A stretch of 54,880 nucleotides of DNA from a virus (taxonomy: Duplodnaviria > Caudoviricetes). The stretch lies in IMG/VR virus record IMGVR_UViG_3300032323_001970, positions 1 to 54,880 of that record; one strand, given 5' to 3'. The notes below the pieces were generated by a model. That model saw only the letters and a program-made list of their open reading frames with translations, was not told the DNA's origin and searched no databases. Position numbers and translations under genes: made by a program. Below, in pieces: positions 1 through 19,173 of the stretch (positions are counted from its first letter, which is position 1; each line of letters opens with the position of its first letter).

Positions 1-135
1 GAGGAAGGCAATCCTGTCTACCAAGGCATCGACACCAGCTTCTTGGTGGCAACCCTCACCGCTGCAATCAAGGAGCAGCAAGCCCTCATCGAATCCCTGA
101 CCGCCCGTGTGGCACAACTTGAATCCAACCCCTGA
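1..135 (+). CDS. 3' end of tail fibre with intramolecular chaperone (peptidase S74-like) C-terminal coiled coil, partial
   Basis: Frame 1 reads EEGNPVYQGIDTSFLVATLTAAIKEQQALIESLTARVAQLESNP*, typical of S74 chaperone C-termini; probably the continuation of the gene starting at 52953. Confidence 0.75.
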   Translation, partial: EEGNPVYQGIDTSFLVATLTAAIKEQQALIESLTARVAQLESNP

Positions 136-146
136 AAGGAAAAACC

Positions 147-473
147 ATGTCTGCAACTATCACTTGGACCGTCACCGCAATGGACTGCTACCCGCAAGAG
201 GATGGCAATACGGACGTTGTGTTCACCGTGCATTGGACCTGCGCTGGCGTGCAAGACGCCTACTCTGCATCGGTGTACAGCACCTGTGCTGTCCCGGCTC
301 CGGCTACGGGCGCTCCGTTCACCCCCTACGAGGACCTCACGCAGAACCAAGTGCTGGGCTGGATTTGGGCCAACGGCGTGGACCAGACGGCTACTGAGGC
401 CGCTGTGCAGCAGCAGATCGACAACCAAATCAACCCTCCGGTTGTTACGCCTCCCCTGCCCTGGGCGGCATAA
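147..473 (+). CDS. tail-fibre-associated hypothetical protein
   Basis: 108 aa ORF with AAAGGA RBS; directly follows the fibre gene; ends PPLPWAA. Confidence 0.7.
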   Translation: MSATITWTVTAMDCYPQEDGNTDVVFTVHWTCAGVQDAYSASVYSTCAVPAPATGAPFTPYEDLTQNQVLGWIWANGVDQTATEAAVQQQIDNQINPPVVTPPLPWAA

Positions 474-485
474 TTTTAACGGGAA

Positions 486-512
486 GCCACCACCCGCTTT
501 TGGTGGCATTTT
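486..512 (+). terminator. hairpin, possible weak terminator
   Basis: GCCACCA-N8-TGGTGGC followed by ATTTT. Confidence 0.35.
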
Positions 513-526
513 GAAAAGGAAACATC

Positions 527-751
527 ATGGGAAACGAAAAAAAGACCCCTGTGAGTGTGAACGGCGTCGAGTACTTTTTTGAAGACCTGACTCAAGAGCA
601 GCAGACTCTCTTCAATCATGCAGTCGATTTGGATCGCAAACTGGCCTCTGCCCGTTTCAACGTTGACCAGCTGCAAGTTGGTCGCAATGCCTTTGGCAAC
701 ATGTTGGAAGCATCTTTGGCCGCAAAACCTGAAGAGCAAAAAGCGGAGTAA
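527..751 (+). CDS. hypothetical coiled-coil phage protein
   Basis: 74 aa ORF, AAAGGA RBS. Confidence 0.7.
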   Translation: MGNEKKTPVSVNGVEYFFEDLTQEQQTLFNHAVDLDRKLASARFNVDQLQVGRNAFGNMLEASLAAKPEEQKAE

Positions 752-753
752 AA

Positions 754-966
754 ATGAGCGCGGACATCGACCCAGTCAAGTACGGAGTGCTATGGCAAAA
801 AGTTCAAGACCTTGACAAAAAGGTTGACAAACTTGAAGCCGGCATGGACGAACTATTGGCCCTTGCTAACAAAGGTCGTGGAGGTTTTTGGGCCGGCATG
901 GCATTGGTGTCCGCGCTCTCGTCTGCTGTCGGCTACTTCTCGCACTGGTTTCACGGAGGCAAGTGA
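754..966 (+). CDS. small membrane protein of lysis region (holin-like)
   Basis: N-terminal coiled coil then a single hydrophobic segment GFWAGMALVSALSSAVGYF. Confidence 0.6.
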   Translation: MSADIDPVKYGVLWQKVQDLDKKVDKLEAGMDELLALANKGRGGFWAGMALVSALSSAVGYFSHWFHGGK

Positions 967-1235
967 TGAACTGGTCAGACGTACTAAAAGCAGTCATCCC
1001 CGTCATCGTTGCTTCTCTTGCTTGGCTCTTGGGGCAGGTAGCTGACTTTTCTAATCGCCTGACCAAGATTGAAGGCTCTATGCCCGCCCTTATCACTAAA
1101 GAAGGCATCCCAACAGACAGCCCTATTTCTGCTGAACGAAGAGCCGTTATGAAAGAGCAACTAATGCATCACATCAACGAGTTGCAGGTTAAAGTCAGGC
1201 TGCTTGAAGAACGCGAAAGGATGGTCAAAAAATGA
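966..1235 (+). CDS. membrane-anchored protein (holin/spanin-like)
   Basis: Starts MNWSDVLKAVIPVIVASLAWLLG (TM) at a TGATG overlap; C-terminal coiled coil. Confidence 0.6.
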   Translation: MNWSDVLKAVIPVIVASLAWLLGQVADFSNRLTKIEGSMPALITKEGIPTDSPISAERRAVMKEQLMHHINELQVKVRLLEERERMVKK

Positions 1236-1750
1236 TACCAATTGTCGCGTCACTGTTGGGGACCCTTGCCGAAAACGGCTTGGGTCTTTTGTCGTCTGCA
1301 ATTCAAGCAAAAGGCAAGCAAGTTGTTGAGAACGCCCTGGGTGTCAAGATCAGCGACAATCCTGGCCCTGAAGAAGTGTCAAAGCTGCGCCAGCTGCAGT
1401 ATGACCATGAAGAACGCTTGCTTGAACTGGGCATTGAAAAAGCCAAGATTGAACAAGAAGAATTGAAAGCCTTGTTGGCTGCCCAAGCCAATCAGGAGGA
1501 CAATGTCAGCAAGCGCTGGCAGGCCGACATGGCTTCCGATTCTTGGTTGTCAAAGAATGTGCGTCCAGGCACCCTTGTTTATCTGTTGACCGCCTACTTG
1601 ATCTTTGCGCTGCTTGATGGCGCGGGGTACAAGATCAGCGAATCTTACGTTTCCTTGCTGGGCCAATGGGGCATGCTGGTCATGACCGCTTACTTTGGCG
1701 GGCGCACGGTCGAGAAGGTCATGGAGATGCGCAGGAAGGACAAAGAATGA
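1232..1750 (+). CDS. holin, 3TM (GTA-type) family
   Basis: SDSWLSKNVRP, two C-terminal TM segments and AYFGGRTVEK; adjacent to endolysin. Confidence 0.75.
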   Translation: MIPIVASLLGTLAENGLGLLSSAIQAKGKQVVENALGVKISDNPGPEEVSKLRQLQYDHEERLLELGIEKAKIEQEELKALLAAQANQEDNVSKRWQADMASDSWLSKNVRPGTLVYLLTAYLIFALLDGAGYKISESYVSLLGQWGMLVMTAYFGGRTVEKVMEMRRKDKE

Positions 1751-2085
1751 GCCTCGCACAAGAACAAGCTGCATTCTTGCTGGACCTTTGCAAGCTGGTT
1801 CAGCATGCTACTGAGCAGGGCTGGATGGTCACAGGAGGTGAACTGGCCAGGACTCCTGAGCAACAAGCCATCTACTTTAAGACCGGCCGCAGCAAGACTA
1901 TGAACTCGATTCATTTGAAGCGCTGCGCCGCTGATTTGAACTTTTTCAAAGATGGCAAGATCATTTGGGACAAGGAAATGCTTGCCCCCTTGGGCGCCTA
2001 CTGGGAAGGCTTGCACCCTAAAAATCGTTGGGGCGGGAACTTTAAGAGCCTGGTGGACTGCCCCCACTTCGAGAGGAATGTGTAA
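1747..2085 (+). CDS. endolysin, M15 family (L-Ala-D-Glu-type) peptidase
   Basis: RTPEQQ, SIHLKRCAADL (His/Asp Zn ligands), RWGGNF, DCPHFE. Confidence 0.85.
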   Translation: MSLAQEQAAFLLDLCKLVQHATEQGWMVTGGELARTPEQQAIYFKTGRSKTMNSIHLKRCAADLNFFKDGKIIWDKEMLAPLGAYWEGLHPKNRWGGNFKSLVDCPHFERNV

Positions 2086-2738
2086 TGCCACAGGCAATGA
2101 CCTTTGCGTCGCTTCAAAACGACGTCCGCAGTTACCTGGAACGTGGAGCGTCTGCTGTCACTGACCCTTTGGTCTACGCGCAAATTCCGAGCCTGATCAA
2201 CTTTGCAGAGCGTCGCATCAGCCGTGACCTTAAGATTCAGGGCTTTCAGACCGTTGTGGTGACGAATCTGCAAACCGGTGTTGCCGTGCTTGCTAAGCCA
2301 GACCGCTGGCGCGAGACTATCTCGATGAACATCGGAACAGGTACAGGCAACAATACCCGCGTCCAACTATTCTCAAGGGCCTACGAGTATGTGAGAAGCT
2401 ACTGGCCCAATGATACCTTGGTGGATGAGCCTGTGTTTTACGCAGACTACAACTACACAAATTGGATCATTGCTCCTACGCCAGATGCAGCTTACCCGAT
2501 AGAGATCCTGTACTACGAGCTGCCAGTCCTGCTGGATGAAAACACCCAGACCAACTGGCTCACCCAGTACGCTCCCAACTTGCTGCTTTACGCGACCCTG
2601 CTGGAAGCCACTCCATTCTTGAAAAACGACGAACGCATCCCTGTCTGGCAAGGCATGTACGCATCAGCCGCCCAAGCGCTGCAAGGTGAAGACATGAGCA
2701 AGATCTTGGACCGCGGTGCCGTAAGAAACGAGGCCTAA
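2085..2738 (+). CDS. head-tail adaptor-like virion protein
   Basis: 217 aa; PSLINFAERRI..., PTPD..Y, NWL..YAPNLLLYATLLEA..FLKNDER pattern of podophage adaptors. Confidence 0.65.
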   Translation: MPQAMTFASLQNDVRSYLERGASAVTDPLVYAQIPSLINFAERRISRDLKIQGFQTVVVTNLQTGVAVLAKPDRWRETISMNIGTGTGNNTRVQLFSRAYEYVRSYWPNDTLVDEPVFYADYNYTNWIIAPTPDAAYPIEILYYELPVLLDENTQTNWLTQYAPNLLLYATLLEATPFLKNDERIPVWQGMYASAAQALQGEDMSKILDRGAVRNEA

Positions 2739-2739
2739 T

Positions 2740-3930
2740 ATGACCACTTACACCAACATCTTTGGGGGCAGCAACATCTCTCCTGCAGAGATCAGCTACG
2801 CCGCAGTAAGCCTTACGGCCAACACGACTTTTGACTGGGCGCTTGAGACCGCTCCTTCGACGAACCTGATTGCCGGCATCATGGATGTTACGGCAACAGC
2901 AGGTCCTTGGAGCCTGACTTTGCCAAGCGCTCTTGAGGCATCAACTGGCCAAGCTATCCTGTTTAACAACGTTGGCTCCAATTCCTTTATCATTAGGAAC
3001 GCTGCCGGAGTACAAGTAGCTGCCCCTGCTGCAGGCCAAGTTTGGCAGATCTACCTGACCAACAACACAACTGCAGGCGGCACCTGGCTTGCATTCCAGT
3101 TTGGCGCAGCCCTGTCCACAGCAAATGCCGCGTCTCTAGCAGGGACGGGCTTAATTGCCATTGGCTCCCTTTTGTCGCTGGCCATGCCTGTTACGTTCTT
3201 CGGAAGTAGCTTCACGGCTGGTGTTGACACTCGCGCAAGGACCTTGATTTGGAACGGGGGCGCGGGCACCTTGACCATGGCTACAGCAGGCACCCTTGGC
3301 GACAACTGGTTTTTCCAGCTTCGCAACGAGGGCACGGGCGCCTTGCTGGTTGATCCTCCTGGTTCTCAGACCATCAACGGTTTGTCAACCTTGACTTTTC
3401 AACCGGGCGATTCTGCCATCATTTTTACGGATGGTTTGAACTTCTACACGATTGGCTACGGTCAATCACCCGTTTTTGCGTTTGACTACACGTCAATCAA
3501 CGTAGCGGGATCGGGCAACTATGTGTTGTCGGGCAGCGAACTGAACCGCATTGCTTACAACTTTACCGGGGTCTTGACCGGCAACCGTACGATCATCGTG
3601 CCGCAGACGGTCCAGCAATACTGGGTTGCTAACAATACGACTGGTCCATACACCCTGACTATCAAGACGTCGATTGCCTCGGGTTACACGATCAACCAAG
3701 GCTCGCGGGCCATCTTGTACTCTGACGGCACCAACGTAGTTGCTGCGGATACTGGTGGCGTGGCTGTTCCAATTAGCGTGTCTGACGGCGGCACTGGCGC
3801 CACGACTGCAGGTAACGCGCTCATCAACCTGGGTGGTACGGCAACGGGTATTGCGATCTTTACGGCCGCTTCCCAAGCAGCCGCCCAAGTGGCGATCGGT
3901 TTGGATCCAATTCAAGGCGGAACCTACTAA
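2740..3930 (+). CDS. tail/virion structural protein
   Basis: 396 aa G/T/A-rich beta-strand protein with GGTGATTA motif; ends IQGGTY. Confidence 0.7.
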   Translation: MTTYTNIFGGSNISPAEISYAAVSLTANTTFDWALETAPSTNLIAGIMDVTATAGPWSLTLPSALEASTGQAILFNNVGSNSFIIRNAAGVQVAAPAAGQVWQIYLTNNTTAGGTWLAFQFGAALSTANAASLAGTGLIAIGSLLSLAMPVTFFGSSFTAGVDTRARTLIWNGGAGTLTMATAGTLGDNWFFQLRNEGTGALLVDPPGSQTINGLSTLTFQPGDSAIIFTDGLNFYTIGYGQSPVFAFDYTSINVAGSGNYVLSGSELNRIAYNFTGVLTGNRTIIVPQTVQQYWVANNTTGPYTLTIKTSIASGYTINQGSRAILYSDGTNVVAADTGGVAVPISVSDGGTGATTAGNALINLGGTATGIAIFTAASQAAAQVAIGLDPIQGGTY

Positions 3931-5576
3931 TGGCAACCACCCCGGTCATCATCAAGTCGTTGCCGGGTATCAAGCGAGATGGTACCAGGTTCGAGGGAGA
4001 CTACCACGTTGACGGACAATGGGTCCGTTGGCAGCGTGGCCTTCCTCGCAAGGTAGGCGGATATTCCGTTGTCAACCGCTACCTGACCGAGATCAGCCGT
4101 GGCGTAAAGACTTTCACCGAAAATAGCCAGACCTACTTTCACTCTGGAAGTGCCAACTTCCTAGAGAGATTTACCCTGGACCCCAGTGGCAATTCGAGCC
4201 TGATCACGGATCGCACCCCGATCACCTACAACGCCAACGACGACAATCTTTGGCAGTTTGACGTGATCTATGACACGCAGTCAATCCCGGCTGCAAACAT
4301 GCTCGTGGCTCAGGTCGCTCCAAACGCCAATTGCCTCTGCAATACGGGCGGTGGCCAATTGTTCATTGGCTCCATGACCGGAGCTGATCGCCTGACTGAA
4401 GTCACAACGTTTCCGGCTGGCGTGAGCGTGACGGGCGGCGTGGTGTCCCTGCATCCTTATCTGATGTATTTCGGCAATGACGGCACGATTGGATGGTCGG
4501 TGGCCGGAGCCCCAACAAACCTGACGGGCGTAGGATCAGGGAATGCGCGCGTAGCAGGTCAAAAGATCGTTCGTGGTCTTCCCCTTAGGGGCGGTCCAGG
4601 AAACGCGCCAGCGGGCCTCTTTTGGAGCGCAGACGCTGTTATCCGGGCCTCCTTTGTAGGTGGCCAGGAAGTCTTTCAGTTTGACACAATTAGCCCGTAT
4701 TCCAGCATCCTGTCTGCCAATTCCGTTATCGAGTACGACGGCCAGTACTTCTGGCTGGGAACAGACCGGATGCTGATGTTCAACGGCGTGGTCCGCGAGA
4801 TCCCCAACAACCTGAACATCAACTACTTCTATGACGGCTTGAACCGTGAAGCCGCCCAGCGAGTTTGGGCATTCAAGGTTCCCCGGTACGGCGAGATCTG
4901 GTGGTGCTACCCGAGGGGCAACGCTACCGAGTGCACTCACGCCATCATCTACAACATTCGCGAAAACACCTGGTACGACACCGAGCTGCCTAATGGCGGC
5001 AGGACTGCGGGCGAATGGTCTCCCCTGTATGCTGCTCCGCTTTTGTGCGGCATCCAACAATCTACCTTTATCGCCAACAACCGCGTGACCGAGAACGGCG
5101 ACTTGCGGATCACCCAGGACGGCGACCAGCGGATTGTGGTTCCTGAGGAAGGCTATAAGGTCTGGCAGCACGAGCGCGGAGTAAACGAGATCGACGGTCA
5201 GTTCATCACGGCGGTTCCGTCGTTCTTCGAGACGGCCGACATGAGCTACGTGGCAGCTCCCGGAAACGCCCGCGACAAATATATCCGGGTCGAGTTCCTT
5301 GAGCCTGACTTTGTCCAGTCTGGCAACATGACCGTCCAACTGACCGGAAGGGCCAATGCCAAGTCCCTGGAAGTCAACGGACCAGAGCGCGTGATTTTTG
5401 CAAACCCGTCCACTCCTTACGAGCAAGTGGTCTTTTTCAAGGAAGAACGGCGCGAACTGCGGTTTAAGTTTGGCTCAAACACCATCAACGGCGACTACCA
5501 GATGGGCCAGGTCATTGCCCACCTTGGCGAAGCCGATGGAACCGTGCTCGGCGGCCTCAAAGAAAGTTCCACGTGA
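3930..5576 (+). CDS. tail nozzle / stabilisation protein (T7 gp12 / P22 gp10-like)
   Basis: 548 aa; PGIKRDGT start, WVRWQRGLPRKVGG, EIWWCYP, IYNIRENTWY, propeller-like pattern; synteny. Confidence 0.7.
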   Translation: MATTPVIIKSLPGIKRDGTRFEGDYHVDGQWVRWQRGLPRKVGGYSVVNRYLTEISRGVKTFTENSQTYFHSGSANFLERFTLDPSGNSSLITDRTPITYNANDDNLWQFDVIYDTQSIPAANMLVAQVAPNANCLCNTGGGQLFIGSMTGADRLTEVTTFPAGVSVTGGVVSLHPYLMYFGNDGTIGWSVAGAPTNLTGVGSGNARVAGQKIVRGLPLRGGPGNAPAGLFWSADAVIRASFVGGQEVFQFDTISPYSSILSANSVIEYDGQYFWLGTDRMLMFNGVVREIPNNLNINYFYDGLNREAAQRVWAFKVPRYGEIWWCYPRGNATECTHAIIYNIRENTWYDTELPNGGRTAGEWSPLYAAPLLCGIQQSTFIANNRVTENGDLRITQDGDQRIVVPEEGYKVWQHERGVNEIDGQFITAVPSFFETADMSYVAAPGNARDKYIRVEFLEPDFVQSGNMTVQLTGRANAKSLEVNGPERVIFANPSTPYEQVVFFKEERRELRFKFGSNTINGDYQMGQVIAHLGEADGTVLGGLKESST

Positions 5577-5800
5577 TCACGCAGCCCGTTATAATTGGTT
5601 TGCGCGATTGGGCCGACCAGATCGTTATGGACCTGTCCACCTATGGCGCACTCGCAAGGCTAGACGATGAAGACAAGTGGCAAGAATGGGCACTGCAATT
5701 CTGCGTTATCTCGGGATTGAGCCAGAAAAACATTCCAGATCCATTTGACTTTGCTGACTGGCGCAGTTGGGCGCAACGCTTCGTACAAATGGTGGACTAA
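5573..5800 (+). CDS. hypothetical Trp-rich protein
   Basis: 75 aa; GTGA and TAATG overlaps couple it to both neighbours. Confidence 0.65.
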   Translation: MITQPVIIGLRDWADQIVMDLSTYGALARLDDEDKWQEWALQFCVISGLSQKNIPDPFDFADWRSWAQRFVQMVD

Positions 5801-6090
5801 TGACCGATCAAGAATTTATTCAGCTACTGAATGACGTAGCTAAAAAAGCCAAGCCGTTTAACCGCGAGCTTAAACAAATTGACTCCATGGACATGGTCCT
5901 TAAGGAGACTGGCCTAGACAGCCTAGACATGCTGATGTGCACCGTCTATCTGTGCGAAATCTACAACGTAGAAGATGAAAAAAGCAAGGAAATGCAGGGC
6001 GAGACCCCGCAAGACCTGTTTAATTTCTTGAAGGAATGGGGGCGCAGACAGCCCACTGACCTGGCCCAGGCCAAGGAGTGGTTTGTATGA
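5800..6090 (+). CDS. acyl carrier protein
   Basis: 96 aa acidic protein with GLDSLD phosphopantetheine attachment motif; next to a ketosynthase. Confidence 0.8.
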   Translation: MTDQEFIQLLNDVAKKAKPFNRELKQIDSMDMVLKETGLDSLDMLMCTVYLCEIYNVEDEKSKEMQGETPQDLFNFLKEWGRRQPTDLAQAKEWFV

Positions 6091-7208
6091 GAATCTTCCT
6101 CACCGAAAGCCGCACTGCGTGCACTGAGGACACGATTCTCTTCGAGAACCATACTTTTCCCCAAAAAGTCCACCTGTTTCCAGAGACCTATAACCGGGTC
6201 AAGACAGGCCTGGTCAATCCGGCTCACCAAGTAGCCGAAAAAGTCTTAGATCCTGACCTTCTGAAGCGCCTTCGGGAGACCCAGACCGGCAAGACTGCCT
6301 TCCTCCTGGCCGCTGGAAACAGCAATTTTGCCAACGAAGGCTCCAAGCTCAACCGCGAGAATGAATGGACCTACAACTACAAGGTCCTTCCGCTGTCCCT
6401 GACCCAGATCTATGCCGGTCGGGTTGCCGCGCAGTGCGGAGAAATTGACCACACGGCTACGGATGCTACCGCCTGTACTTCTAGCCTCAAGGTCTTGATG
6501 GACGTCCAAACCCTCATCAAGTTCTACGGCTTCGACCGGGTCATCGTACTGGCCGTCGAGGACCAGGTGAACAACATGACCCTCCAGTTCTTTGGAGAAG
6601 CCAAGGCGACTTTGACAGAAAGCATGGCCGAGGCTCACCAGGTGAGCCCCAGTGCATTCGATTCCAAGAACTTTGGGTTTTATATAGGTCAAGGCGCCGT
6701 GTTGGCCGTATTTGAGTCAGAAGAAGCCGTAAGGCGCGGCACTTTTCCTGCTAGGGCAGAACTTGTGTCGGCCTGGACGGCAACCGAAGTGGCTACAAAT
6801 GCTATCGGTCAACGAGAAGACGGGCAAGGGTTTAGACGAGCCATCGAGGGCGCGCTGAAACTTTGTCAAGTTTCTTCAGAACAAATTAAAATCGTGAAAA
6901 CTCATGGCACCGGTACCCGGTCTAACAATGATGCCGAAAAGGCGGCTTTGGAAAGGTGCTTGAGTGGGTTTGTAGCGACATCGTATAAGCAACGAATCGG
7001 CCATACGATGGGAGCGAGCGGACTGTTAGAGACCCTCTTGCTGTTCAATGATTTAGAAAAGGGAACTGTCCCTGGGATCTTGAATCGGACTGAAGAGGAT
7101 CATGTGTTCCTCTCTGAAGCGGTTGAAGCACCTAAAGGGATGGTGTTAAGCTTGAGTGCTGGCATGGGCAACGTGTTCAGTGCTGCGCTTTTCAACATGA
7201 GGATCTAA
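6087..7208 (+). CDS. beta-ketoacyl-ACP synthase (FabB/FabF-like)
   Basis: Catalytic Cys-His-His motifs ATACTSS, KTHGTGT, KQRIGHTMGASG; C-terminal SLSAGMG. Confidence 0.9.
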   Translation: MRIFLTESRTACTEDTILFENHTFPQKVHLFPETYNRVKTGLVNPAHQVAEKVLDPDLLKRLRETQTGKTAFLLAAGNSNFANEGSKLNRENEWTYNYKVLPLSLTQIYAGRVAAQCGEIDHTATDATACTSSLKVLMDVQTLIKFYGFDRVIVLAVEDQVNNMTLQFFGEAKATLTESMAEAHQVSPSAFDSKNFGFYIGQGAVLAVFESEEAVRRGTFPARAELVSAWTATEVATNAIGQREDGQGFRRAIEGALKLCQVSSEQIKIVKTHGTGTRSNNDAEKAALERCLSGFVATSYKQRIGHTMGASGLLETLLLFNDLEKGTVPGILNRTEEDHVFLSEAVEAPKGMVLSLSAGMGNVFSAALFNMRI

Positions 7209-7210
7209 CT

Positions 7211-7669
7211 ATGCCGCTCGTAGACAGCAGACAACAAATGCTTGACCTTGGCGAGCTACTGAAGGTAGCAGCTGAGAACACAAAATCCGAGTACCCGATG
7301 GAATTCGTGTACGCCACCTTTGTCAAGGAGGTGCAGATGCCGGACAGCAAGTTCTACCGCTACGGCAACACTGTCTACGTCGTGCATGGTTCGGAAAAAA
7401 CTCCTCGCAAGGGCATGTTTAGAGCACTGAACGCAGACACCGCCCCAAATTTTCTAGCTTCAGGTTTTGCTTTTGTCGTCGACGCCTACAAGGCCGGTTT
7501 CGACACGCTGGTCACCCAGTTCAGTGACCAAAGCCTGTTGAACATCTTCCGCAACGTTGCAAAGAACCCGCCAAACCCTGGCATGGGCTACAACGTCACC
7601 ATGCTGGCCGATGGCCAATACCAGGTGGCTTTGCAACTCGGACAAAAACGTGAAGGAGCACGGCAATGA
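7211..7669 (+). CDS. hypothetical protein, possibly GNAT-like (T7 gp13-like position)
   Basis: 152 aa alpha/beta pattern; lies between nozzle region and internal proteins; fold is inference only. Confidence 0.55.
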   Translation: MPLVDSRQQMLDLGELLKVAAENTKSEYPMEFVYATFVKEVQMPDSKFYRYGNTVYVVHGSEKTPRKGMFRALNADTAPNFLASGFAFVVDAYKAGFDTLVTQFSDQSLLNIFRNVAKNPPNPGMGYNVTMLADGQYQVALQLGQKREGARQ

Positions 7670-9735
7670 GTGCTGTAGTAGATTTTGTTGAAGACGTTGT
7701 TGGCGGCGTAGTTGAAGCCGTCGGCGATGTTGTTGATAGCGTCGTTGACGTTGTCAAAGACGTTGGCAGGGCCATCGACGATTACGTCATTCAGCCTATC
7801 CTAGATGATCCGCTATCGGCAATCGCAACCGTAGCCGGCGCATATTTCCTTGGGCCTGCAGCAGCCAGTATGTTTGGCACGTCGGCAACTGTTGGGGCCG
7901 GCATTGCTGCTGGCGCGGCAAACACGGCCGCCGGCCTTGTGCAAGGCGAAGATTTTGATGAGGCGCTCAAGGGCGGTATTGCTGCTGGCGTCGGCACTTG
8001 GGCCGGAGGAGAACTGACCAACGCGCTTACTGGGGGTTCTTCGGCTGCAGCCACTCCAACGGATCCGCTTGATGATTTCCTGGCAGCCAACAATAACTTT
8101 GTTGACGTGCCGATGGACGTTGCTGTAACTCCTCCTGCATCGGCAGTGGCAAGCCCTGTGGACTTGACCACTCCAATGGGAACTGATCTTCCTCCTCTTG
8201 GAGGTGAGGTGCCTGCAGCTTCTCCTGCCGCGATGACGCCTGCGTCGGCAACCCCTGTGTCTACTTCGCCGCTTGAGTCACTTGCGCCTCCGGCTGACGC
8301 GGCCGCTGCAGCAGCAACTCAAAGTCCTTTGCAGTCGCTGGGTACTGCAGTTCCTACTGTAGACGTGCCCACGTTTACTTCGGGCCTAGACACTTCGTTT
8401 GCTCCTAACTACGACCTGTCAGCTGGCATCAAACCTTCTACTGGTCTGCAGGTTCCGCAGTTTACGGGCGGCGACGCCTTTGACATCTACGGCAATCCCA
8501 GCTACAGCGTAACCCCTCCAGGTGTGTCAGGCGGTCCTGGCCTGCAATTTCCAGATGCTCCTAACCTCGCTCGCATGGGAGGCGGTCAGGGCATCACTGC
8601 AGACGTTAGCGGCATGCCTGAGTTCCGCTACAGCGAGGCCTCACTTGATCCTTCACTCCGTGGTCAGACTGATACCTGGCAAAGCGGCGGCAAGACTTAC
8701 GGGGCTGCAACACCTGACGTCACGATCAGCTCAAGCGGCATTACGCCAACGCCAGATACGATCACCTACGACCCCACGACCAACATGGGTACTCCCAGCG
8801 CTTGGGATCAGTTGACAAGCGGAAACGTTGTGGACGCGGCAAAGACGGTCGGCAGCAACGCTGTTGATTGGGTCAAAGCAAACCCATGGACGGCAGCAAG
8901 CACGGCTCTTACGGCTACCAGCTTGCTTGGCGGTCCTGGCGCTCCTTCTAATCAGGCACCGGCCACAAGAGGTTCTACTCAAGACAAGAACTTCAACAAG
9001 TCGCTTGACCTGTATGAGTACATGCGCGACAAGACCAACTATGCCGGAGATTTGGCCAAGTACGGCCAAATAGGCCAAGGAACTCCTGGCGAGCACCAGT
9101 TCTTCCAGAACACTCGCTTTGTGCCAATACCGATTCCCGGTCAAACGCCCACTCCTGCAAAGATGGGTGGCCTGATCCAGATGAAGCATTACGCTCAAGG
9201 CGGTCAAGTTCAAGGCATGCAAGATCCTCGTCGCGCTCAGCTGATGGCAGCCATGGCGCAGCAACGTCCTGCCGGTCAAGGTGGTCCTTTGGGCATGGCT
9301 CAAGGGCGTCCTCCCATGACTCAGGGCGGGATGATGCCTGGTCGCCCGATGCAGCCGCAAAACGCACAAGGCATGCAGCAACAAGCTCGTCCTCAAGCGC
9401 CTCAGCGTTCTCGCGATCCTAAGATGGCCTACTACCAGTATGGCAATCCTCCTGCTCAAGCGAAAGCCATGGGCGGACTTAGCCAAGTGCAAAGTATGCG
9501 GATTGGCGGAGGTGCCGATGGTCGCTCTGATGACGTGAACGCAGTCTTGTCTGACGGCGAATACGTGATGGACGCGGAGACAGTGGCGATGCTTGGCAAC
9601 GGCTCCTCTAAGGCCGGGGCCAAAAAACTTGACGACATGCGCTCTAAGTTGCGTCAACACAAAGGCAAGAATCTTGCAAGCGGCAAGATCAGCCCTGACG
9701 CCAAGAGTCCGCTGGCTTATTTGAAGGGAGCTTGA
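7666..9735 (+). CDS. putative internal virion / DNA ejection protein
   Basis: 689 aa; amphipathic V/D-rich N-terminus, hydrophobic segments, low-complexity middle, C-terminal GGADGRSDD..LSDGEYVMDAETV domain. Confidence 0.65.
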   Translation: MSAVVDFVEDVVGGVVEAVGDVVDSVVDVVKDVGRAIDDYVIQPILDDPLSAIATVAGAYFLGPAAASMFGTSATVGAGIAAGAANTAAGLVQGEDFDEALKGGIAAGVGTWAGGELTNALTGGSSAAATPTDPLDDFLAANNNFVDVPMDVAVTPPASAVASPVDLTTPMGTDLPPLGGEVPAASPAAMTPASATPVSTSPLESLAPPADAAAAAATQSPLQSLGTAVPTVDVPTFTSGLDTSFAPNYDLSAGIKPSTGLQVPQFTGGDAFDIYGNPSYSVTPPGVSGGPGLQFPDAPNLARMGGGQGITADVSGMPEFRYSEASLDPSLRGQTDTWQSGGKTYGAATPDVTISSSGITPTPDTITYDPTTNMGTPSAWDQLTSGNVVDAAKTVGSNAVDWVKANPWTAASTALTATSLLGGPGAPSNQAPATRGSTQDKNFNKSLDLYEYMRDKTNYAGDLAKYGQIGQGTPGEHQFFQNTRFVPIPIPGQTPTPAKMGGLIQMKHYAQGGQVQGMQDPRRAQLMAAMAQQRPAGQGGPLGMAQGRPPMTQGGMMPGRPMQPQNAQGMQQQARPQAPQRSRDPKMAYYQYGNPPAQAKAMGGLSQVQSMRIGGGADGRSDDVNAVLSDGEYVMDAETVAMLGNGSSKAGAKKLDDMRSKLRQHKGKNLASGKISPDAKSPLAYLKGA

Positions 9736-9736
9736 T

Positions 9737-11305
9737 ATGGGTGTTCTGGACTTTTTGTTCCAGGGGGCACCACCTCCGTCGGTCACGACGTATGGTGAGA
9801 CGACTTCCAACGTTCCCGCCTGGTATTCTGACTACACGCAGGGCTTGATCAGCAGGGCGAACGCCATTGCGGCAGAGCCTTATCAGCCGTACACCCAGGC
9901 CAGGATTGCCGGTTACGACCCGCTTCAGACAAGGGCGTATGAGAACACGTCCAATCTTGCGGGAACGTACCAGCCGCTGATGGACATGTCAAGAAATGCC
10001 ATCTACAACGCAGGAGCTGGCAGCTCTGTTGGTGCTGCTCAACCTTACATCACTCAGGCTCTTCAGTACAACCCGTACAACGCAGCTTCTGGTGCCATTG
10101 GCCAAGCAAGCAATTTGATTGGTCAGAGCTATGGCGACACGAGCTCCCTGGCTCAGCCCTACTTCAATCAGGCCAATCAGTTGACTGGTCAGGCGATGCA
10201 GTCGGCAGCTGGCTTGGCTACGCCTTATTTGAATCAGGCGGCTATGGGTGCAGCACAAGCAGGTTCTGCCAATACGGCAGGCCTTGCTCAGCCCTACATG
10301 CAGCAAGCATCTCAGCTCTCGAGCCAAGGTGCTCAGACTGGTTTGGGCGGCATCCAGGACTACATGAATCCCTACCAGGAGCAAGTGGTCAACCGCATTG
10401 GCGATTTGGCAAGCCGCAACCTGCGTGAGAACTTGCTGCCCAACATCCAAGACCGCGCCATTCAAGCGGGTACGTTTGGCGGCAGCCGTAGTGGTGAGGC
10501 CATCGGACGCGCTTTGCGAGACACCCAAGAATCTACACTTGCTCAACAGACTGCGGCCCTCCAACAGGGCTACACGCAAGCTGGTCAGCAACTGCAAGCC
10601 GATCGAGCCCGTCAGTTGCAAGCTGCCCAACAGCAGGCTGGTTTTGGTCAACAGGCGGCCGGCATGTCGGCTGCAGATCAAGCGCGCCTGCTTCAGGCAA
10701 GCGGCCAACTGGCCGGTATCGGTCAAACCACCGCAGGCCTTACGGCAGCAGACTACCAACGCATGTTGGCAGGAGCCCAGCAACAGGCGGCCATGGGTCA
10801 ATCGGCAGCAGGCTTGAAAGGTGCAGACCTTGCAAGATACGGTCAGGCCGGCGCTCAAATGGGTGCCCTTGGTCAGATGCAAGGCAACTTGGCAGGCGCA
10901 GCAGGAACCCAAAATCTGCAAGCCGCCCAACAAATGGGTGCCCTGTCTAATCAAGACTTTGCTCGCATGCTGCAGTCTGGTCAAGCTATGGGTGCCCTTG
11001 GTCAACAAACCCAGCAGATGGGCCTGCAAAACATTGCAGCTCTTGAGGCTGCGGGCGCGGGTCAGCAACAGCAAACCCAGCGTTCGTTGGATCAGGCTTA
11101 CCAAGACTTCTTGAATCAACGCGAATACGACCGCAACAACATCGCTTTCCTGAATGCGGCTGTTCGCGGTCTGACTGTTCCGACCTCTACAACTACGGCT
11201 TCAACGGGTCCTGCAAGCGTGTATCAGCCATCTCCATTGTCGCAATTCGGCTCTGCTCTGGCTACAGGCTACGGTTTCAACAAGATGTTTGGCGGCGGAA
11301 GATAA
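9737..11305 (+). CDS. putative internal virion / pilot (ejection) protein
   Basis: 522 aa Q/A/G-rich helical protein; YMNPY, GTFGGSR and QPY..QA repeats. Confidence 0.7.
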   Translation: MGVLDFLFQGAPPPSVTTYGETTSNVPAWYSDYTQGLISRANAIAAEPYQPYTQARIAGYDPLQTRAYENTSNLAGTYQPLMDMSRNAIYNAGAGSSVGAAQPYITQALQYNPYNAASGAIGQASNLIGQSYGDTSSLAQPYFNQANQLTGQAMQSAAGLATPYLNQAAMGAAQAGSANTAGLAQPYMQQASQLSSQGAQTGLGGIQDYMNPYQEQVVNRIGDLASRNLRENLLPNIQDRAIQAGTFGGSRSGEAIGRALRDTQESTLAQQTAALQQGYTQAGQQLQADRARQLQAAQQQAGFGQQAAGMSAADQARLLQASGQLAGIGQTTAGLTAADYQRMLAGAQQQAAMGQSAAGLKGADLARYGQAGAQMGALGQMQGNLAGAAGTQNLQAAQQMGALSNQDFARMLQSGQAMGALGQQTQQMGLQNIAALEAAGAGQQQQTQRSLDQAYQDFLNQREYDRNNIAFLNAAVRGLTVPTSTTTASTGPASVYQPSPLSQFGSALATGYGFNKMFGGGR

Positions 11306-11314
11306 GGACACAAC

Positions 11315-14300
11315 ATGGCACTAGAAGACGACGAGTCTGGCCTGGAAGTCAGTTCTACTGACCAAACCAGCGGAGCTCAGACGCTTGGTTACACCTCCTC
11401 GCGAGGTGCGGCCAATCCGTATACTGGGCAGCTTCAAACCCTACTCAAGAAATACCTTGAAAACACTGACAAAGCAGCGACTGATAAACAAGCCTTGTTG
11501 GATAAGGCGCGTGAGCGGGTCATGGCTAGGTCCGCTGGTCCGGATCAGGCAGAGATGGCGTTCCGTCTTGCGGCTGCTCTCGGTAAGCCTACTCGCACTG
11601 GTAGCTTTGGCGAGACAATTGGTAACGTTGCCGAAGCGACTGGCGAGGCTCTTGCTCAGCGCCGTAAAGCGTCGCAAGAACTAGAAGAGCTTAACCTCAA
11701 GTACCAGCTGGCGGCGGCCGATACCAAAGGCGAAGGTCAAAGAGCGCAGATCAGTGCCCTGTCTGCTCTGGCTAAGTCGACTCCTAAAGATCGCCTGACT
11801 GAGATTGAGAAGCTTCAAGAGATCATTGAGGATCCCAAAGCTTCTGAGAGCGCCAAAAAGAATGCGCAAGCCCGTATCACCTTTTTGACCGTTCGTCCTT
11901 CTGCTGTCAAGACCACTGAGATCGAGCAGCTGCTCGAAAAAATCAACGACCCAAATGTGTCGCCGGCAAACAAGAGGGTCTACCAGCAGCGACTCAACAA
12001 GCTGAACTACATTGCACCTGAAGCTAAGGCAGATCGAGATGCTGGTAAGCCGCAATCGCCTGCTGGCAAGATTGCTGTTGACGAAGGATTTGTTCCCGGG
12101 ACCCCTGATTATCAGAAGCGCGTCAAGGCTTTGACCGGTGATGGTAAGGGGGTGACCCTGAGCGCCACCGAGCAAAAAGAACTGTTTGAGGCTCAAGACG
12201 TTGTCAACGCCAGTAAGTCCGTGCTCCTCAACTTGAGCAAGGCCCTGGAGCTGAACGACAAGGCCTATTCTGGTTTTGCAGCAGGGGCCCGCAGAACTAT
12301 CGCCCGTAACATTCCTGGCGTCAGCGAATCGGAAGGCGTTACTGCAACGACCGAAATTGAATCCTTGGTCATCACCAATTCGCTTGACCAGTTGAAAGCC
12401 ATCTTTGGTGGAGCCCCAACCGAAGGCGAACGCAAGATCTTGCTCGACATCCAAGGCTCGATCAACATGAGCCCTGCCGAACGCAAAAAAGTTTGGGAGA
12501 GCGCCATGCAGGCCGCGGCTCGCCGCATGAGGTCCAGCGAAGCCAAGATGGCCAACATTCGCAAGGGGGCGTACAGCCGGGTTGTGCCTGAAGGCAACGC
12601 CGATGGCGGCCTGGTCGGTTATGCCGACGGCGGACCTGTGCACATGTCCAACGGCGGCGAGTTCTCGATGGCAAACCTGGGCCGCGCAGTTGGTCAGGGC
12701 TTGGGCCTTGGTTTTGGCGACGAGGCCATCGCCCGTGTTCGCGCCAAGATGGAAGGACGTCCCTACGAAGACGTGGTCCGTGAGGAACGTGAAGCCTACC
12801 AACGCTTCCAGGAAAAAAATCCGTTTATCGCCCTTGGCACCGAGCTAGTGTCTGGCATTGTTCCAACCGTCGGCATGGCGCTGATTCCAGGAGCAGGTAC
12901 TCCAGGAGCCGTGGCCGGGTCTGCTCGCATGGGAATGGCGGCCCAGAAGCTTGCTCAATATATGCCCGGGTTCATGAAGGGTTCGATGGGCAAAGCTGCT
13001 GGCACCGCGGCTGCAACAGGTGCCGTGGCAGGAGCCGGTTCTGCAACTGAAGGCCAACGCACTTCTGGGGCTGTCACTGGCGGCGCAACTGGTGCGGTCC
13101 TTGGCCCCACGGTTGCAAAGACCGTTCAGCTGGGCGGACAAGGCGTCAAGGCCGTCAAGAACGCGATTCAGCCATCTCCAAATGCCGTGGAGCAACGCGC
13201 GACCAATAAGGTATTGGAAGCCATGGGCCGGGACGAGATGGGCGTCCAGGAACTTCGTGACCGCATGCTGGCAGACCAGAAGCTTGGCGTGCAGTCCACT
13301 ATTATGGATGCAACGCCGTCCCTGTCTACGCTTGGTGAAGCCGTAGTGACTCGCCCGGGACCAGGTCGCAAGATCTTGGGAGAAGGCCTGAATGAACGCC
13401 TGGAAACGGGCCGCGAATCAGCTGCTGCCAGGGCCCTGAAGGACGTTGGAAAAGGCGTGGATTACACGGCACAAGAAGACAAGCTGATTGGAACCTTGCG
13501 CGCCAATGCCAACAACCTCTACGACAAGGCCTACGCTCATGGTTCTGTGGATGATACCCGCATCCTGAAGGTCTTGGAAGACGACACCTTCAAAAGGGCG
13601 TTCAGGGAAGCTCAGGCCATTGCCAGCAAAGAAGCACGGGCAGCAGAACTTCGTGGCGAAGACGCTAGCCGCTTCAAGTTGAACGACATCTATGATGTCG
13701 ATGACAAGGGCAACCTGATCACCGTTGGCAAGATCCCTGACGTCCGCACCCTTGACTACATCAAGCGGGGCATCGATGCCATCATCGACAAGGGCTACAA
13801 AGGCGAAGGCATGTCCAAGGCCGAAGCCAATGCGCTTAAGGACCTTAAGAAAGCCTTCGTTAGTGTCATCGACGAGAACGTGCCGGAATACGCAGGGGCA
13901 CGAGCTAGGTATGCCGGCGACATAGAAGTTTTGGACGCTCTTCGTTTAGGTCGTACAGACTACCTTACTCCGAAGATGCTGCCGGCAGAAGCCAAAAAGC
14001 TGGTTGACGGCATGTCTGATGCCGAGCGCGACGCCTTGCGTGCGGGTGTGGCTCAGTCGCTTTTGACCAAGGTTCTTGACGCGCCCCAGCAAGTCAATGC
14101 GGCCCAGCGAATCATTGGAGCCCCGGCGACTCGCAAACGTTTGGAGGCCTTGTTCCAAGACCCCAACGAGTACAAACTGTTTGAGGCGGCCCTGCAGCGC
14201 GAGTCCGAGTTGTTCCGCAACGCCCAGGACATTGCTCGTGGAAGCCGCACGGCCAATAAGACGGCTGCCCTGGCCGACCTCAAGGCTGGCAATGGCATCT

Positions 14301-14665
14301 TCGACATCGCTGGCGAAGCAGTTGACATTGCAACGGGTTCACCCGGCTCTGTGGTCGGACGCGTCTTGAAGTACCTGCAGGCTCGCACATCTCTTGACGA
14401 GAAGACTGCCGGCGAAGTGGCTAAGATGCTGAAGTCAGGTACGATGCAGGAGGTCGATGATACCCTGAAGCGGCTTGAATCTAGCAGTGCCAGGTTCTTG
14501 GAAGAAAAGAAGGCCTCAGCAGGTCGCTTAAGAACAACCGCCGGCGCAGTTGGTGCCGCGGCTCCGACTACTGACCGGGCCGCTTCAGAATCAGAGGCCC
14601 CGGTTGATGAGGACGAGGACGCTAGGCTCCAAAGGCTCTTGGAAAAGTACAACATAGAGGAATAA
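11315..14665 (+). CDS. large internal virion protein
   Basis: 1116 aa helical; GQGLGLGFGDE and Gly/Ala-rich hydrophobic segment typical of ejection proteins. Confidence 0.65.
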   Translation: MALEDDESGLEVSSTDQTSGAQTLGYTSSRGAANPYTGQLQTLLKKYLENTDKAATDKQALLDKARERVMARSAGPDQAEMAFRLAAALGKPTRTGSFGETIGNVAEATGEALAQRRKASQELEELNLKYQLAAADTKGEGQRAQISALSALAKSTPKDRLTEIEKLQEIIEDPKASESAKKNAQARITFLTVRPSAVKTTEIEQLLEKINDPNVSPANKRVYQQRLNKLNYIAPEAKADRDAGKPQSPAGKIAVDEGFVPGTPDYQKRVKALTGDGKGVTLSATEQKELFEAQDVVNASKSVLLNLSKALELNDKAYSGFAAGARRTIARNIPGVSESEGVTATTEIESLVITNSLDQLKAIFGGAPTEGERKILLDIQGSINMSPAERKKVWESAMQAAARRMRSSEAKMANIRKGAYSRVVPEGNADGGLVGYADGGPVHMSNGGEFSMANLGRAVGQGLGLGFGDEAIARVRAKMEGRPYEDVVREEREAYQRFQEKNPFIALGTELVSGIVPTVGMALIPGAGTPGAVAGSARMGMAAQKLAQYMPGFMKGSMGKAAGTAAATGAVAGAGSATEGQRTSGAVTGGATGAVLGPTVAKTVQLGGQGVKAVKNAIQPSPNAVEQRATNKVLEAMGRDEMGVQELRDRMLADQKLGVQSTIMDATPSLSTLGEAVVTRPGPGRKILGEGLNERLETGRESAAARALKDVGKGVDYTAQEDKLIGTLRANANNLYDKAYAHGSVDDTRILKVLEDDTFKRAFREAQAIASKEARAAELRGEDASRFKLNDIYDVDDKGNLITVGKIPDVRTLDYIKRGIDAIIDKGYKGEGMSKAEANALKDLKKAFVSVIDENVPEYAGARARYAGDIEVLDALRLGRTDYLTPKMLPAEAKKLVDGMSDAERDALRAGVAQSLLTKVLDAPQQVNAAQRIIGAPATRKRLEALFQDPNEYKLFEAALQRESELFRNAQDIARGSRTANKTAALADLKAGNGIFDIAGEAVDIATGSPGSVVGRVLKYLQARTSLDEKTAGEVAKMLKSGTMQEVDDTLKRLESSSARFLEEKKASAGRLRTTAGAVGAAAPTTDRAASESEAPVDEDEDARLQRLLEKYNIEE

Positions 14666-14668
14666 GCC

Positions 14669-18865: not shown

Positions 18866-18880
18866 TCCGTGGTCCCCTAT

Positions 18881-19044
18881 CAAATTCCCTATAGATGAGT
18901 TTTTAGGCCAAAACAGAGTGTATCAGTACTCTCTGTTTTGTCTTCGCGGATCCTTATGCTATCGAGCGAACGATAGCTTCTAGAGTTCTTTTTTGTACCA
19001 GTACACTCTGTTTTGGCTCTAAAAACACTCTATAGGATTTTTGG
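18881..19044. repeat. inverted-repeat element A (~50-bp arms, central core)
   Basis: Arms 18881-18929 and 18995-19044 are imperfect reverse complements (CTATAG...GCCAAAACAGAGTGTA); core CGAGCGAACGATAG at 18963-18976; related to 37144-37303. Confidence 0.9.
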
Positions 19045-19087
19045 CTCTTTGGGCTGGTAAAAGTCCTAGCAACTATTTGCAAAAAAC

Positions 19088-19120
19088 TGCGCGCTGCGTG
19101 GTTTTCTGCGCTAGAATGCA
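19088..19120 (+). promoter_or_regulatory. putative early promoter
   Basis: TGCGCG-N18-TAGAAT-GCA; same motif and spacing at 33394-33426. Confidence 0.65.
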
Positions 19121-19173
19121 ACCATGCACAGCAATCCTGCTGGCATAAACAGAAAGAAGAAAGAGAGAAAATC

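Follow-up and report, generated by a model that had tools for sequence, protein, structure and literature searches.

A carrier protein, a ketosynthase and a GNAT-fold protein encoded beside the ejection genes of short-tailed phages: a candidate acyl-transfer module

In the rhizobial Nod system, NodF is an acyl carrier protein (ACP), NodE a ketosynthase (KS) and NodA an N-acyltransferase, and AcpXL likewise comes with a dedicated FabF-type KS and the acyltransferase LpxXL. In these systems, the private ACP carries a special acyl chain, which an N- or O-acyltransferase delivers to one particular acceptor. Here, we describe a gene cassette of comparable make-up in an uncultured short-tailed phage, IMG/VR record IMGVR_UViG_3300032323_001970, which was analysed over its whole length of 54,880 bp (estimated completeness 98%; called the window below). 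The cassette codes for an ACP-like carrier protein, a KS and a GNAT-fold protein of 152 aa (orf152), and the ejection genes lie directly downstream. As in the Nod and AcpXL systems, the dedicated ACP and KS genes stand side by side without other fatty acid synthesis (FAS) genes, so that housekeeping enzymes must do the rest; among the 80 top-ranking loci of a KS profile scan, 79 have the phage ACP directly upstream of the KS, the exception being a contig that begins inside the KS. NodF/NodE/NodA and AcpXL appear to be the closest known systems in logic. There are also differences: the phage KS is separate from cellular FabF-like KS, the candidate acyltransferase has a minimal GNAT fold and is not of the NodA or LpxXL type, and the genes are phage-encoded, in or beside a tail/ejection operon.

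Two further systems invite comparison. HlyC-type acyltransferases have a GNAT-related fold and acylate RTX toxins from the host's own ACP. The logic proposed below is the same, with an acyl-ACP donor, a small GNAT-related acyltransferase and an adjacent membrane-inserting acceptor, and by analogy HlyC may be the nearest known case in which a protein that inserts in membranes is acylated from acyl-ACP. However, HlyC uses the host ACP, and its Pfam model (PF02794) matches nothing in the phage. Among eukaryotic viruses, picornavirus VP4 and reovirus mu1 are N-myristoylated entry proteins, and the host N-myristoyltransferase has a GNAT fold. The parallel would lie in a protein from inside the capsid whose N-terminal residue is small and which is released at entry and inserts in the host membrane; it is pure analogy, since in the phage the donor would be acyl-ACP and not acyl-CoA, and the enzyme would be viral and not that of the host.

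The position of orf152 is also familiar. T7 gp13 (PF11090, 'internal virion protein A') and P22 gp14 (PF11039/DUF2824) are proteins of 138-151 aa whose genes, like orf152, lie between the nozzle or needle gene and the ejection genes (gene orders 12-13-14-15-16 in T7 and 26-14-7-20-16 in P22), but neither phage has an ACP or KS in that stretch. An open question in the biology of short-tailed phages is how their ejection proteins get out of the capsid and form a channel across two membranes. The literature open to our search, to which most subscription journals do not belong, describes no phage ACP-KS-GNAT cassette and no acylated ejection proteins, and the accessible text of a 2022 review of ejection proteins contains no word beginning with 'acyl'. 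The components are of known kinds; what is new is their combination and their placement in a phage tail/ejection operon, together with natural modular variants.

Layout of the cassette and a possible pathway

The cassette is on the + strand, as are all long open reading frames (ORFs) of the window. Upstream of it is the gene for a tail/nozzle-type virion structural protein of 548 aa (3930-5576; phrog_3287 'virion structural protein', 6.7e-32), whose counterpart by synteny in GenBank record MW202545 is annotated as 'phage stabilization protein'. There follow orf75, coding for a small acidic, Trp-rich protein (5573-5800; no match in Pfam or PHROG); the gene for the ACP-like carrier protein of 96 aa (5800-6090; phrog_28189, 3e-5, and family profile); the gene for a divergent, phage-type FabF/PKS-like KS of 373 aa (6087-7208; PF02801, PF00109 and phrog_35856, 2e-39); and orf152 (7211-7669), at the T7-gp13/P22-gp14 position and, judging by its predicted fold, a candidate acyl-ACP-dependent N-acyltransferase. 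The ACP and KS ORFs are open from 5767 and 6078, respectively; because homologues are 373 aa long, we place the KS start at ATG 6087 and the ACP start at ATG 5800. The next gene (7666-9735) codes for a protein of 689 aa without Pfam or PHROG match, which by its position is the first ejection-type protein and a candidate acyl acceptor.

The nozzle stop and orf75 start share GTGA (5573-5576), the orf75 stop and ACP start TAATG (5798-5802), and the KS start and ACP stop ATGA (6087-6090); after a 2-nt gap between KS and orf152 (7209-7210), orf152 and the 689-aa gene again overlap by ATGA (7666-7669). A preliminary description of this DNA had called ACP and KS translationally coupled on the strength of three of these motifs, all of which read as it had said.

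We tentatively read ACP-KS-GNAT as a module for N-acyl transfer from acyl-ACP, most likely aimed at the first ejection protein, and would give this reading somewhat less than an even chance. The overlapping start and stop codons that run from the nozzle gene through the first ejection gene support it, as does the related record G004, which keeps an unlinked GNAT beside an ACP-KS in its replication module. Because the phage has no phosphopantetheinyl transferase (PPTase), FabD or other fatty acid gene, such a module would lean on host enzymes. A six-frame search of the 98%-complete record (E<=10) gave no match to PPTase (PF01648) or malonyl transferase (PF00698) models, and Pfam scans of 49 window ORFs revealed no reductase, thioesterase or AMP-ligase, in agreement with the preliminary description, which had recognised no PPTase, malonyl transferase, reductase or thioesterase. 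In the proposed pathway, the host PPTase would turn the phage ACP into its holo form and host FabD would load it with malonate. The KS would then condense a host acyl chain, from acyl-ACP or acyl-CoA, with malonyl-phage-ACP to yield (3-oxo)acyl-phage-ACP, thereby diverting acyl chains from host lipid synthesis to a private carrier, and the GNAT-fold protein would use acyl-phage-ACP to N-acylate an amine. The acceptor would most likely be the first ejection protein, whose conserved M-(S/G)-A-V-V start would expose a small residue once Met is removed, and the acylated protein would engage the host membrane at infection.

Ketosynthase, carrier protein and GNAT-fold protein

The KS scores above the cut-off (20.8 bits) in both Pfam domains (PF02801, 61.3 bits, 1.2e-16; PF00109, 33.6 bits, 4e-8), with a divergent N-terminal half: the PF00109 match begins at profile position 114. 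In alignments, the nucleophile Cys130 (codon 6474-6476), His273 (6903-6905), Lys301 (6987-6989) and His306 (7002-7004) lie over the catalytic Cys/His/Lys/His of FabF, and all four are invariant in 131/131 full-length family members (110 distinct). The Cys-His-His set noted previously is thus intact, and the Lys aligns too. The closest solved relative is FabF 4ddo (3.2e-22); against Escherichia coli FabF, the phage KS is 26% identical over 242 residues and approximately 40 residues shorter. An AlphaFold2 (AF2) model (pLDDT 85.6, pTM 0.89) has low confidence only at residues 39-41 and 81-90, and in Foldseek it matches FabF and type II polyketide synthase (PKS) KS, including the actinorhodin KS, at TMq 0.75-0.82. 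With TMq of about 0.8 to both kinds of enzyme, the thiolase fold of the model is complete despite the shorter, divergent N-terminal half. The fold and the Cys-His-His-Lys set are therefore common to FabF/FabB, type II PKS KS and the phage protein, but besides its shorter length the latter differs in two motifs. The C-terminal gate is GMGN instead of GFGG, with Met360 and Asn362 invariant in 131/131, and the family reads KTHGTG where FabF-like comparison sequences carry (N/S)AHGT(S/G).

The phage KS also lies on a separate branch. A search of 1.84 billion cluster representatives returned 50 KS clusters at E<=1e-30, with lengths of approximately 330-390 aa and identities down to about 30%; beyond the family, scores drop to 80-113 bits (modular PKS, FabF), compared to 470 inside it. 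We built a maximum-likelihood tree of 83 rows, comprising 45 representatives (<88% identity) of 131 locus KS, 25 database members and 13 FabF-like proteins. The family occupies one side of a branch of length 1.87 (SH-aLRT 100); P0192 and P0198, which had been labelled as family members beforehand and have GFGG-like motifs, fall outside. Recent transfer of a host fab gene can be rejected on the same scores (nearest non-family proteins at 80-113 bits versus 470 within the family), and the long separate branch likewise speaks against the one-off host transfer that had been named as the counter-case to the preliminary description.

Few family members are found outside viral collections. In 185,579 species genomes (one per species), 5 of the best 80 KS matches belong to the family, all on contigs of metagenome-assembled genomes (MAGs), and the other 75 are at most 34% identical to the KS. 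The MAG labels (Rhodocyclaceae, Polaromonas) are a weak hint, and the only one, to a host among the Burkholderiales or Rhodocyclaceae. A GNAT-like gene adjoins the KS in 4 of the 5 MAG members and is missing in the fifth, L220, an 89.8 kb contig labelled Rhodocyclaceae. Its ACP-KS is at 7711-9107, with no GNAT within 8 kb, and Pfam matches among 10 neighbouring ORFs are to FAD/NAD oxidoreductase, DUF6345 and GIY-YIG; the contig may represent a third ACP-KS context or a prophage. A DNA search of cultured phages gave no match. The corresponding protein search matched 15 records, of which only MW202545, itself uncultured, holds a family member; the other 14 contain FabF-like stretches that are at most 28% identical, in unannotated records. 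On this sequence evidence, the KS is a deep, essentially phage-restricted family.

The carrier protein is more divergent. It contains the GLDSLD motif, with Ser41 (codon 5920-5922) as the predicted phosphopantetheine attachment site, and its size (96 aa) and isoelectric point (4.5) fit a small acidic carrier protein. D40-S41-L42-D43 is invariant across 20 diverse homologues, and the serine of the DS pair is kept in 158/158 distinct ACP-like sequences, i.e., in everything fetched. The Pfam PP-binding model (PF00550) does not match the ACP at E<=0.1, or at E<=10 in a six-frame search, and the protein is recognised by a family profile only. That profile, built from 20 homologues, matches 83 PDB sequences of ACPs at E<=1 (best 3.3e-4) with DSLD over DSLD, and hhalign aligns the family with E. 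coli AcpP in the same register (87%, E 3.8e-6).

For orf152, the preliminary description had suggested that the 152-aa protein might take part in acylation, and its predicted structure agrees with that proposal as far as the fold is concerned. The AF2 model, made from an alignment of 20 homologues (pLDDT 86.9), has GNAT topology (alpha1-alpha2-beta2-beta3-beta4-alpha3-beta5-alpha4-beta6-beta7). Foldseek against the PDB gave 39 matches at E<=1e-3, and all of those listed are GNAT acyltransferases; with VIA-align, the top 50 are all GNAT (Z 9.2-11.2, 115-133 residues aligned). Given that both methods agree on the model, we take the GNAT fold as established. The prominent matches are protein N-terminal or lysine acetyltransferases (RimI, Naa80, NatA/NatC, Rv0998 and HP0935), though the matches as a whole are of a generic GNAT kind, and orf152 is a candidate acyl-ACP-dependent N-acyltransferase. 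The family has the invariant motifs FRALNAD, GNT and TQF.D. In wider searches, a GNAT profile found 495 proteins at E<=1e-3 among 8000 candidates scored, and the 120 that were listed all lack Pfam domains and are called 'hypothetical protein' if they are named at all. In the ESM Atlas, the nearest 30 clusters are unnamed and viral, and the nearest Pfam-bearing cluster is DUF2824 (score 0.88), which we treat as a lead only. By sequence, orf152 has no match in the PDB. Predictions of an ACP-GNAT complex scored 0.34, 0.00 and 0.00 in runs made without controls and are evidence neither way.

The shared position with T7 gp13 and P22 gp14 finds no counterpart in sequence. PF11090 and PF11039 are unmatched in the phage (E<=10), although the founding proteins T7 gp13 and P22 gp14 match their own models at 1e-47 and 6e-53, and hhalign gives 0.6% and 0.2%, respectively; homology to either is rejected at the level of sequence. 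The earlier remark that T7 gp13 is GNAT-like in some phages also receives no backing from sequence (the same hhalign value of 0.6%); the BFVD database holds two proteins named 'Internal virion protein A' that weakly match the orf152 model (ranks 13 and 49; TMq 0.47-0.48). Against PDB sequences, T7 gp13 itself (L218, 3308-3721) matches only two spermine/spermidine acetyltransferases, over residues 66-128 and at E 0.39-0.40; these matches are not significant, though they point toward a GNAT-like gp13. P22 gp14 matches a glyoxalase in the same kind of search (E 0.008).

The KS product is by definition 3-oxoacyl-ACP, which raises a different possibility, namely that the three proteins together produce a diffusible N-acyl amine (an N-acyl amino acid, say, or a compound resembling a homoserine lactone) for host manipulation, lysis timing or phage-phage signalling. 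3-oxoacyl-ACP is the donor of many LuxI-type synthases, which have a GNAT-related fold, and the LuxI-type, acyl-ACP-using TofI is among the fold matches of orf152 (Foldseek ranks 8 and 12; VIA-align Z 9.4); lysis genes, including an M15 peptidase (1666-2085), lie approximately 3.5 kb upstream. TofI is, however, not among the closer matches in VIA-align (39th), the PF00765 and PF13444 models are unmatched, and 152 aa, compared to approximately 175-184 residues in TofI, leaves little room for a second substrate pocket. Moreover, the constant place of the GNAT gene directly before that of the ejection protein, with the ATGA overlap, suggests a protein partner. We consider a diffusible product distinctly improbable.

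In a further account, the three proteins are not working enzymes; the KS-like and ACP-like proteins would be structural or decoy proteins of the virion or of host takeover, e.g., titrating host FAS partners, and orf152 a scaffold. In its favour, the canonical cofactor motif is missing from the GNAT-fold protein, Pfam does not recognise the divergent ACP, and the KS has GMGN for GFGG at its gate and a shortened, divergent N-terminal half. But invariance of the KS catalytic residues (131/131) and of the ACP serine (158/158) down to about 30% identity is not expected of non-catalytic relics, and no other protein of the module is as well conserved as the KS. We consider a non-enzymatic role hardly credible.

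Gene order, relocation and loss of the ketosynthase

The first scan gave 57 IMG/VR loci (57-95% KS identity) which, with GenBank MW202545, make 58, and the order adaptor-tail-nozzle-orf75-ACP-KS-GNAT is kept in all of them as far as the contig reaches. The ACP is present in 57/58 and GNAT in 51/58, the 7 without it ending at the KS. In terms of sequence, the KS is the best conserved protein of the module; in L037, for example, it is 61% identical, as against nozzle (39%), adaptor (45%), ACP (36%) and GNAT (41%). A KS profile scan of IMG/VR found at least 556 related contigs. Among the best 80 loci, GNAT is directly downstream of the KS in 58, 3 end at the KS and 19 have the pair in another context. 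Scanning with a GNAT profile found 313 related contigs and 78 new loci, with the KS directly upstream in 70; in a second GNAT scan, centred on the related locus L214, 71 new loci comprise 67 with the KS upstream, 2 near a contig end and 2 without KS, one of these being L214's own contig. The GNAT-bearing IMG/VR contigs number at least 384. Because some contigs recur in more than one scan and the loci come from related phages, the counts show prevalence and not independent events, which lessens what they can contribute to any functional reading. Nevertheless, most of the related IMG/VR loci have the order nozzle-orf75-ACP-KS-GNAT-ejection genes, and the nozzle-ACP-KS-orf152 synteny envisaged in the preliminary description is found over wide divergence.

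The small orf75 is part of this order. It is conserved in 52/58 loci, and whatever the architecture, whether ACP and KS are there or not, it comes directly after the nozzle gene. It is present in L214, which has GNAT as its only cassette gene, and in G004; its dN/dS is 0.02-0.12. Homologues, e.g., in L214 (4712-4951) and L302 (7777-8022), have a conserved C-terminal DW(R/E)xWAQRF motif.

The place in the tail/ejection operon noted in the preliminary description holds for most loci but is not universal, since in 19/80 loci ACP-KS is in a replication module without an adjacent GNAT (L087, L061, L062, L071, L075, L076, L080, L082, L083, L089, L092, L107, L113, L117, L119, L124, L128, L132 and L139). 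There, the pair is followed by a helix-turn-helix (HTH)-like protein of approximately 100 aa, for which no family match was found, and by a DUF3310 protein. L087 (6708-8418) has primase, SNF2 helicase and ACP-KS, then exonuclease, single-stranded DNA-binding protein (SSB) and ribonucleotide reductase, with no tail genes nearby. In the KS tree, the replication-module KS form two well-supported clades nested among tail-module clades, indicating that ACP-KS moved between modules at least twice. In G004 (52% complete), ACP-KS is in the replication module and GNAT lies 20 kb away, in an adaptor-tail-nozzle-orf75-GNAT-ejection module; in the other four replication-module records tested, which are 19-43% complete, GNAT was not found.

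Such mobility fits the chief rival account, in which ACP-KS is a mobile two-gene auxiliary cassette concerned with host fatty acid or lipid metabolism, or with production of a small lipid, and independent of orf152, itself a gp13/gp14-type morphogenetic or internal virion protein; adjacency would then reflect a permissive landing site between orf75 and orf152. Besides the pair's place between the SNF2 helicase and the HTH-like gene, in a primase-exonuclease-SSB-ribonucleotide reductase module, in 19/80 loci, and the two or more relocations implied by the nested KS clades, several observations are in keeping with this. The nozzle-orf75-GNAT-ejection order occurs without ACP-KS at that place in L214, L306 and G004, T7 and P22 have a similarly sized gene in that place but no ACP or KS, and the accessible part of the literature treats phage ACP and fabF genes as lipid-metabolism auxiliaries. 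What the landing-site account explains less well is that KS is directly upstream of GNAT in such large shares of the loci from both GNAT scans (70/78 and 67/71). A lone KS and ACP should, in addition, be unable to raise bulk lipid synthesis by themselves.

Natural loss of the KS bears on the same question. Of the 78 loci found with the GNAT profile, 8 lack the KS, and 7 of these 8 keep the ACP next to GNAT. Six are KS-deleted relatives of the window (L155, L158, L159, L161, L166 and L192), with GNAT 83-87% identical. The deletion (window 6054-7193) took two steps, with breakpoints 6053->6867 or 6091->6846, both types also lacking 6912->7193. The KS relics in the six loci still read IKTHG...NNMGI; orf75, ACP (with DSLD) and GNAT are intact. 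No KS was found elsewhere in three of the KS-deleted records, which are 40-77% complete. Where dS is measurable in the six relatives, the ACP has a dN/dS of 0.06-0.15, with 0.06 at dS 0.95 between two members of one deletion type; GNAT (0.04-0.09) and orf75 (0.02-0.12) are comparable. In the more distant L193, the order is nozzle-orf75-ACP-GNAT without any trace of a KS. An ACP that stays intact, next to GNAT and under purifying selection after loss of the KS is hard to explain if it served the KS only, and the direct coupling of ACP to GNAT in L193 points the same way. Taking both sides together, we give the account of a cassette independent of orf152 a somewhat lower chance than the acyl-transfer reading. 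As for the acyl-transfer reading, because the ACP is kept under selection after KS loss, the sequence comparisons make ACP and GNAT look like a core pair, with the KS as an accessory device for acyl supply or specificity.

Ejection proteins and the remainder of the genome

The four genes downstream of orf152 code for large proteins (689, 522, 1116 and 1398 aa). Of these, the 522-aa product is the second ejection-type protein (9737-11305, + strand) and matches phrog_4287 'DNA ejection protein' (1.4e-6). The 689-aa protein starts with MSAVV and has Gly/Ala-rich hydrophobic segments. Across the loci, the gene after GNAT usually overlaps or abuts the GNAT gene, and its product has a strongly conserved start, M-(S/G)-A-V-V, that continues with a repeat of acidic and hydrophobic residues (..DVV..VGDVV..). 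Of 133 distinct N-termini, 78 have S, 41 G, 7 A, 3 T and 4 another residue at position 2, with A at position 3 in 109 and V at position 4 in 116. A small residue at position 2 allows removal of the initiator Met and suits GNAT-fold N-terminal acyl or acetyl transferases. We infer from these N-termini that the first ejection protein would be the most likely acyl acceptor.

By eye, the ejection-type proteins encoded at 7666-18865 have short Gly-rich motifs near their C-terminal parts in common (AKMGGLIQM, AKAMGGLSQV, ADGGLVGYADGGPV, GYAKGGMVKK), which may be a packaging or assembly signal.

The interpretation given in the preliminary description is thus supported in part, and several observations weigh against an acyl-transfer module directed at this protein. 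With respect to the enzyme, orf152 has no special likeness to known acyl-ACP-using GNAT relatives; the GNAT Pfam models are unmatched by orf152 (E<=0.1) and by all 20 family members (E<=10), and the HlyC (PF02794), LuxI (PF00765) and Acetyltransf_5 (PF13444) models are unmatched in the phage (E<=10). GNAT proteins bind the cofactor pyrophosphate through a Q/R-x-x-G-x-G/A loop after beta4. In orf152, as placed by the secondary structure of the model, this loop is replaced by an invariant R71-A-L-N74-A-D76, and with neither the canonical loop nor a Pfam match orf152 could be non-catalytic. With respect to the donor, the 19/80 replication-module loci, with no GNAT adjoining, indicate that ACP-KS can work or be kept away from GNAT, probably earlier in infection. 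The six KS-deleted relatives show that the KS is dispensable in nature, and phages exist that have GNAT only (L214/L304, L306; the order in L214 is nozzle-orf75-GNAT). With respect to the acceptor, many proteins of all kinds have a small residue at position 2. The M-(S/G)-A-V-V start is also found in KS-less and ACP-less phages, and its conservation in GNAT-only phages implies that neither GNAT nor the N-terminus depends on a phage ACP. According to a note in the P22 GenBank record, a host protease removes the first 20 residues of gp7, so the conserved N-terminus could instead be a cleavage signal. Finally, the late expression proposed in the preliminary description would follow from gene order, and no promoter or terminator signal above chance accompanies it. 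A search for sequencing runs containing part of the stretch found 8 DNA runs, one of them perhaps the source, and no RNA run. In positions 1-19500, there are 4 promoter-like sites (7.0 expected) and 22 terminator-like sites (22.8 expected), numbers that have no bearing on operon limits.

A more far-reaching form of the acyl-transfer proposal would be that the gene at the T7 gp13/P22 gp14 position is, in this large group, a GNAT-fold N-acyltransferase that lipidates Ser/Gly2 of the first ejection protein for insertion into the host envelope, with a private ACP and a bespoke KS supplying the (3-oxo)acyl donor. This would be the phage equivalent of N-myristoylated VP4 or mu1 and the first virus-encoded carrier-protein-dependent pathway of protein lipidation, and we consider it unlikely in this full form. 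If true, such wiring of ACP, KS and N-acyltransferase to the gene of the first ejection protein would mean that covalent lipidation plays a part in ejection, and it predicts a mass shift on a defined N-terminus that depends on the GNAT motif as well as on ACP Ser41 and KS Cys130. Natural variants with a deleted KS or a relocated pair are ready-made genetic controls. Should the target be a different one, there would still be a large, deep, essentially phage-restricted KS clade with an altered gate motif in at least 556 IMG/VR contigs, a clade that at present goes under the label of an ordinary fabF-type auxiliary gene of lipid metabolism.

In the remainder of the window, the M15 peptidase gene (1666-2085) is among small lysis-type genes at the 5' end (Pfam scan) and is followed by an SU10-type adaptor (2085-2738; PF24175, 1.3e-27) and a 396-aa tail protein, all on the + strand and upstream of the nozzle-type gene. 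A replication/nucleotide block occupies approximately 19-33 kb, with DUF932, methyltransferase, MazG, thymidylate-synthase-like, dCMP deaminase and family A DNA polymerase genes as well as Pam3 gp32-34-like genes, an archaeo-eukaryotic (AEP) primase, and UvrD and SNF2 helicases. The terminase gene is at 37695, followed by a large portal-sized ORF, a Cpn10-like gene and the capsid protein gene at 44770, and large fibre-like ORFs occupy the 3' end.

Within the replication/nucleotide block, the stretch 21057-23722 clusters a MazG-like pyrophosphohydrolase, a P-loop kinase-like ORF, a thymidylate-synthase-like gene (PF00303, 2.7e-20) and a dCMP deaminase, and may represent a modified-pyrimidine or dTTP-supply pathway. 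At 25882-27510, three consecutive genes that adjoin the DNA polymerase gene match the cyanophage Pam3 gp32, gp33 and gp34 families (PF23992, PF23984 and PF23977), and the Cpn10/GroES-like gene (42171-42590; PF00166, 1.9e-12) lies within the block of head genes.

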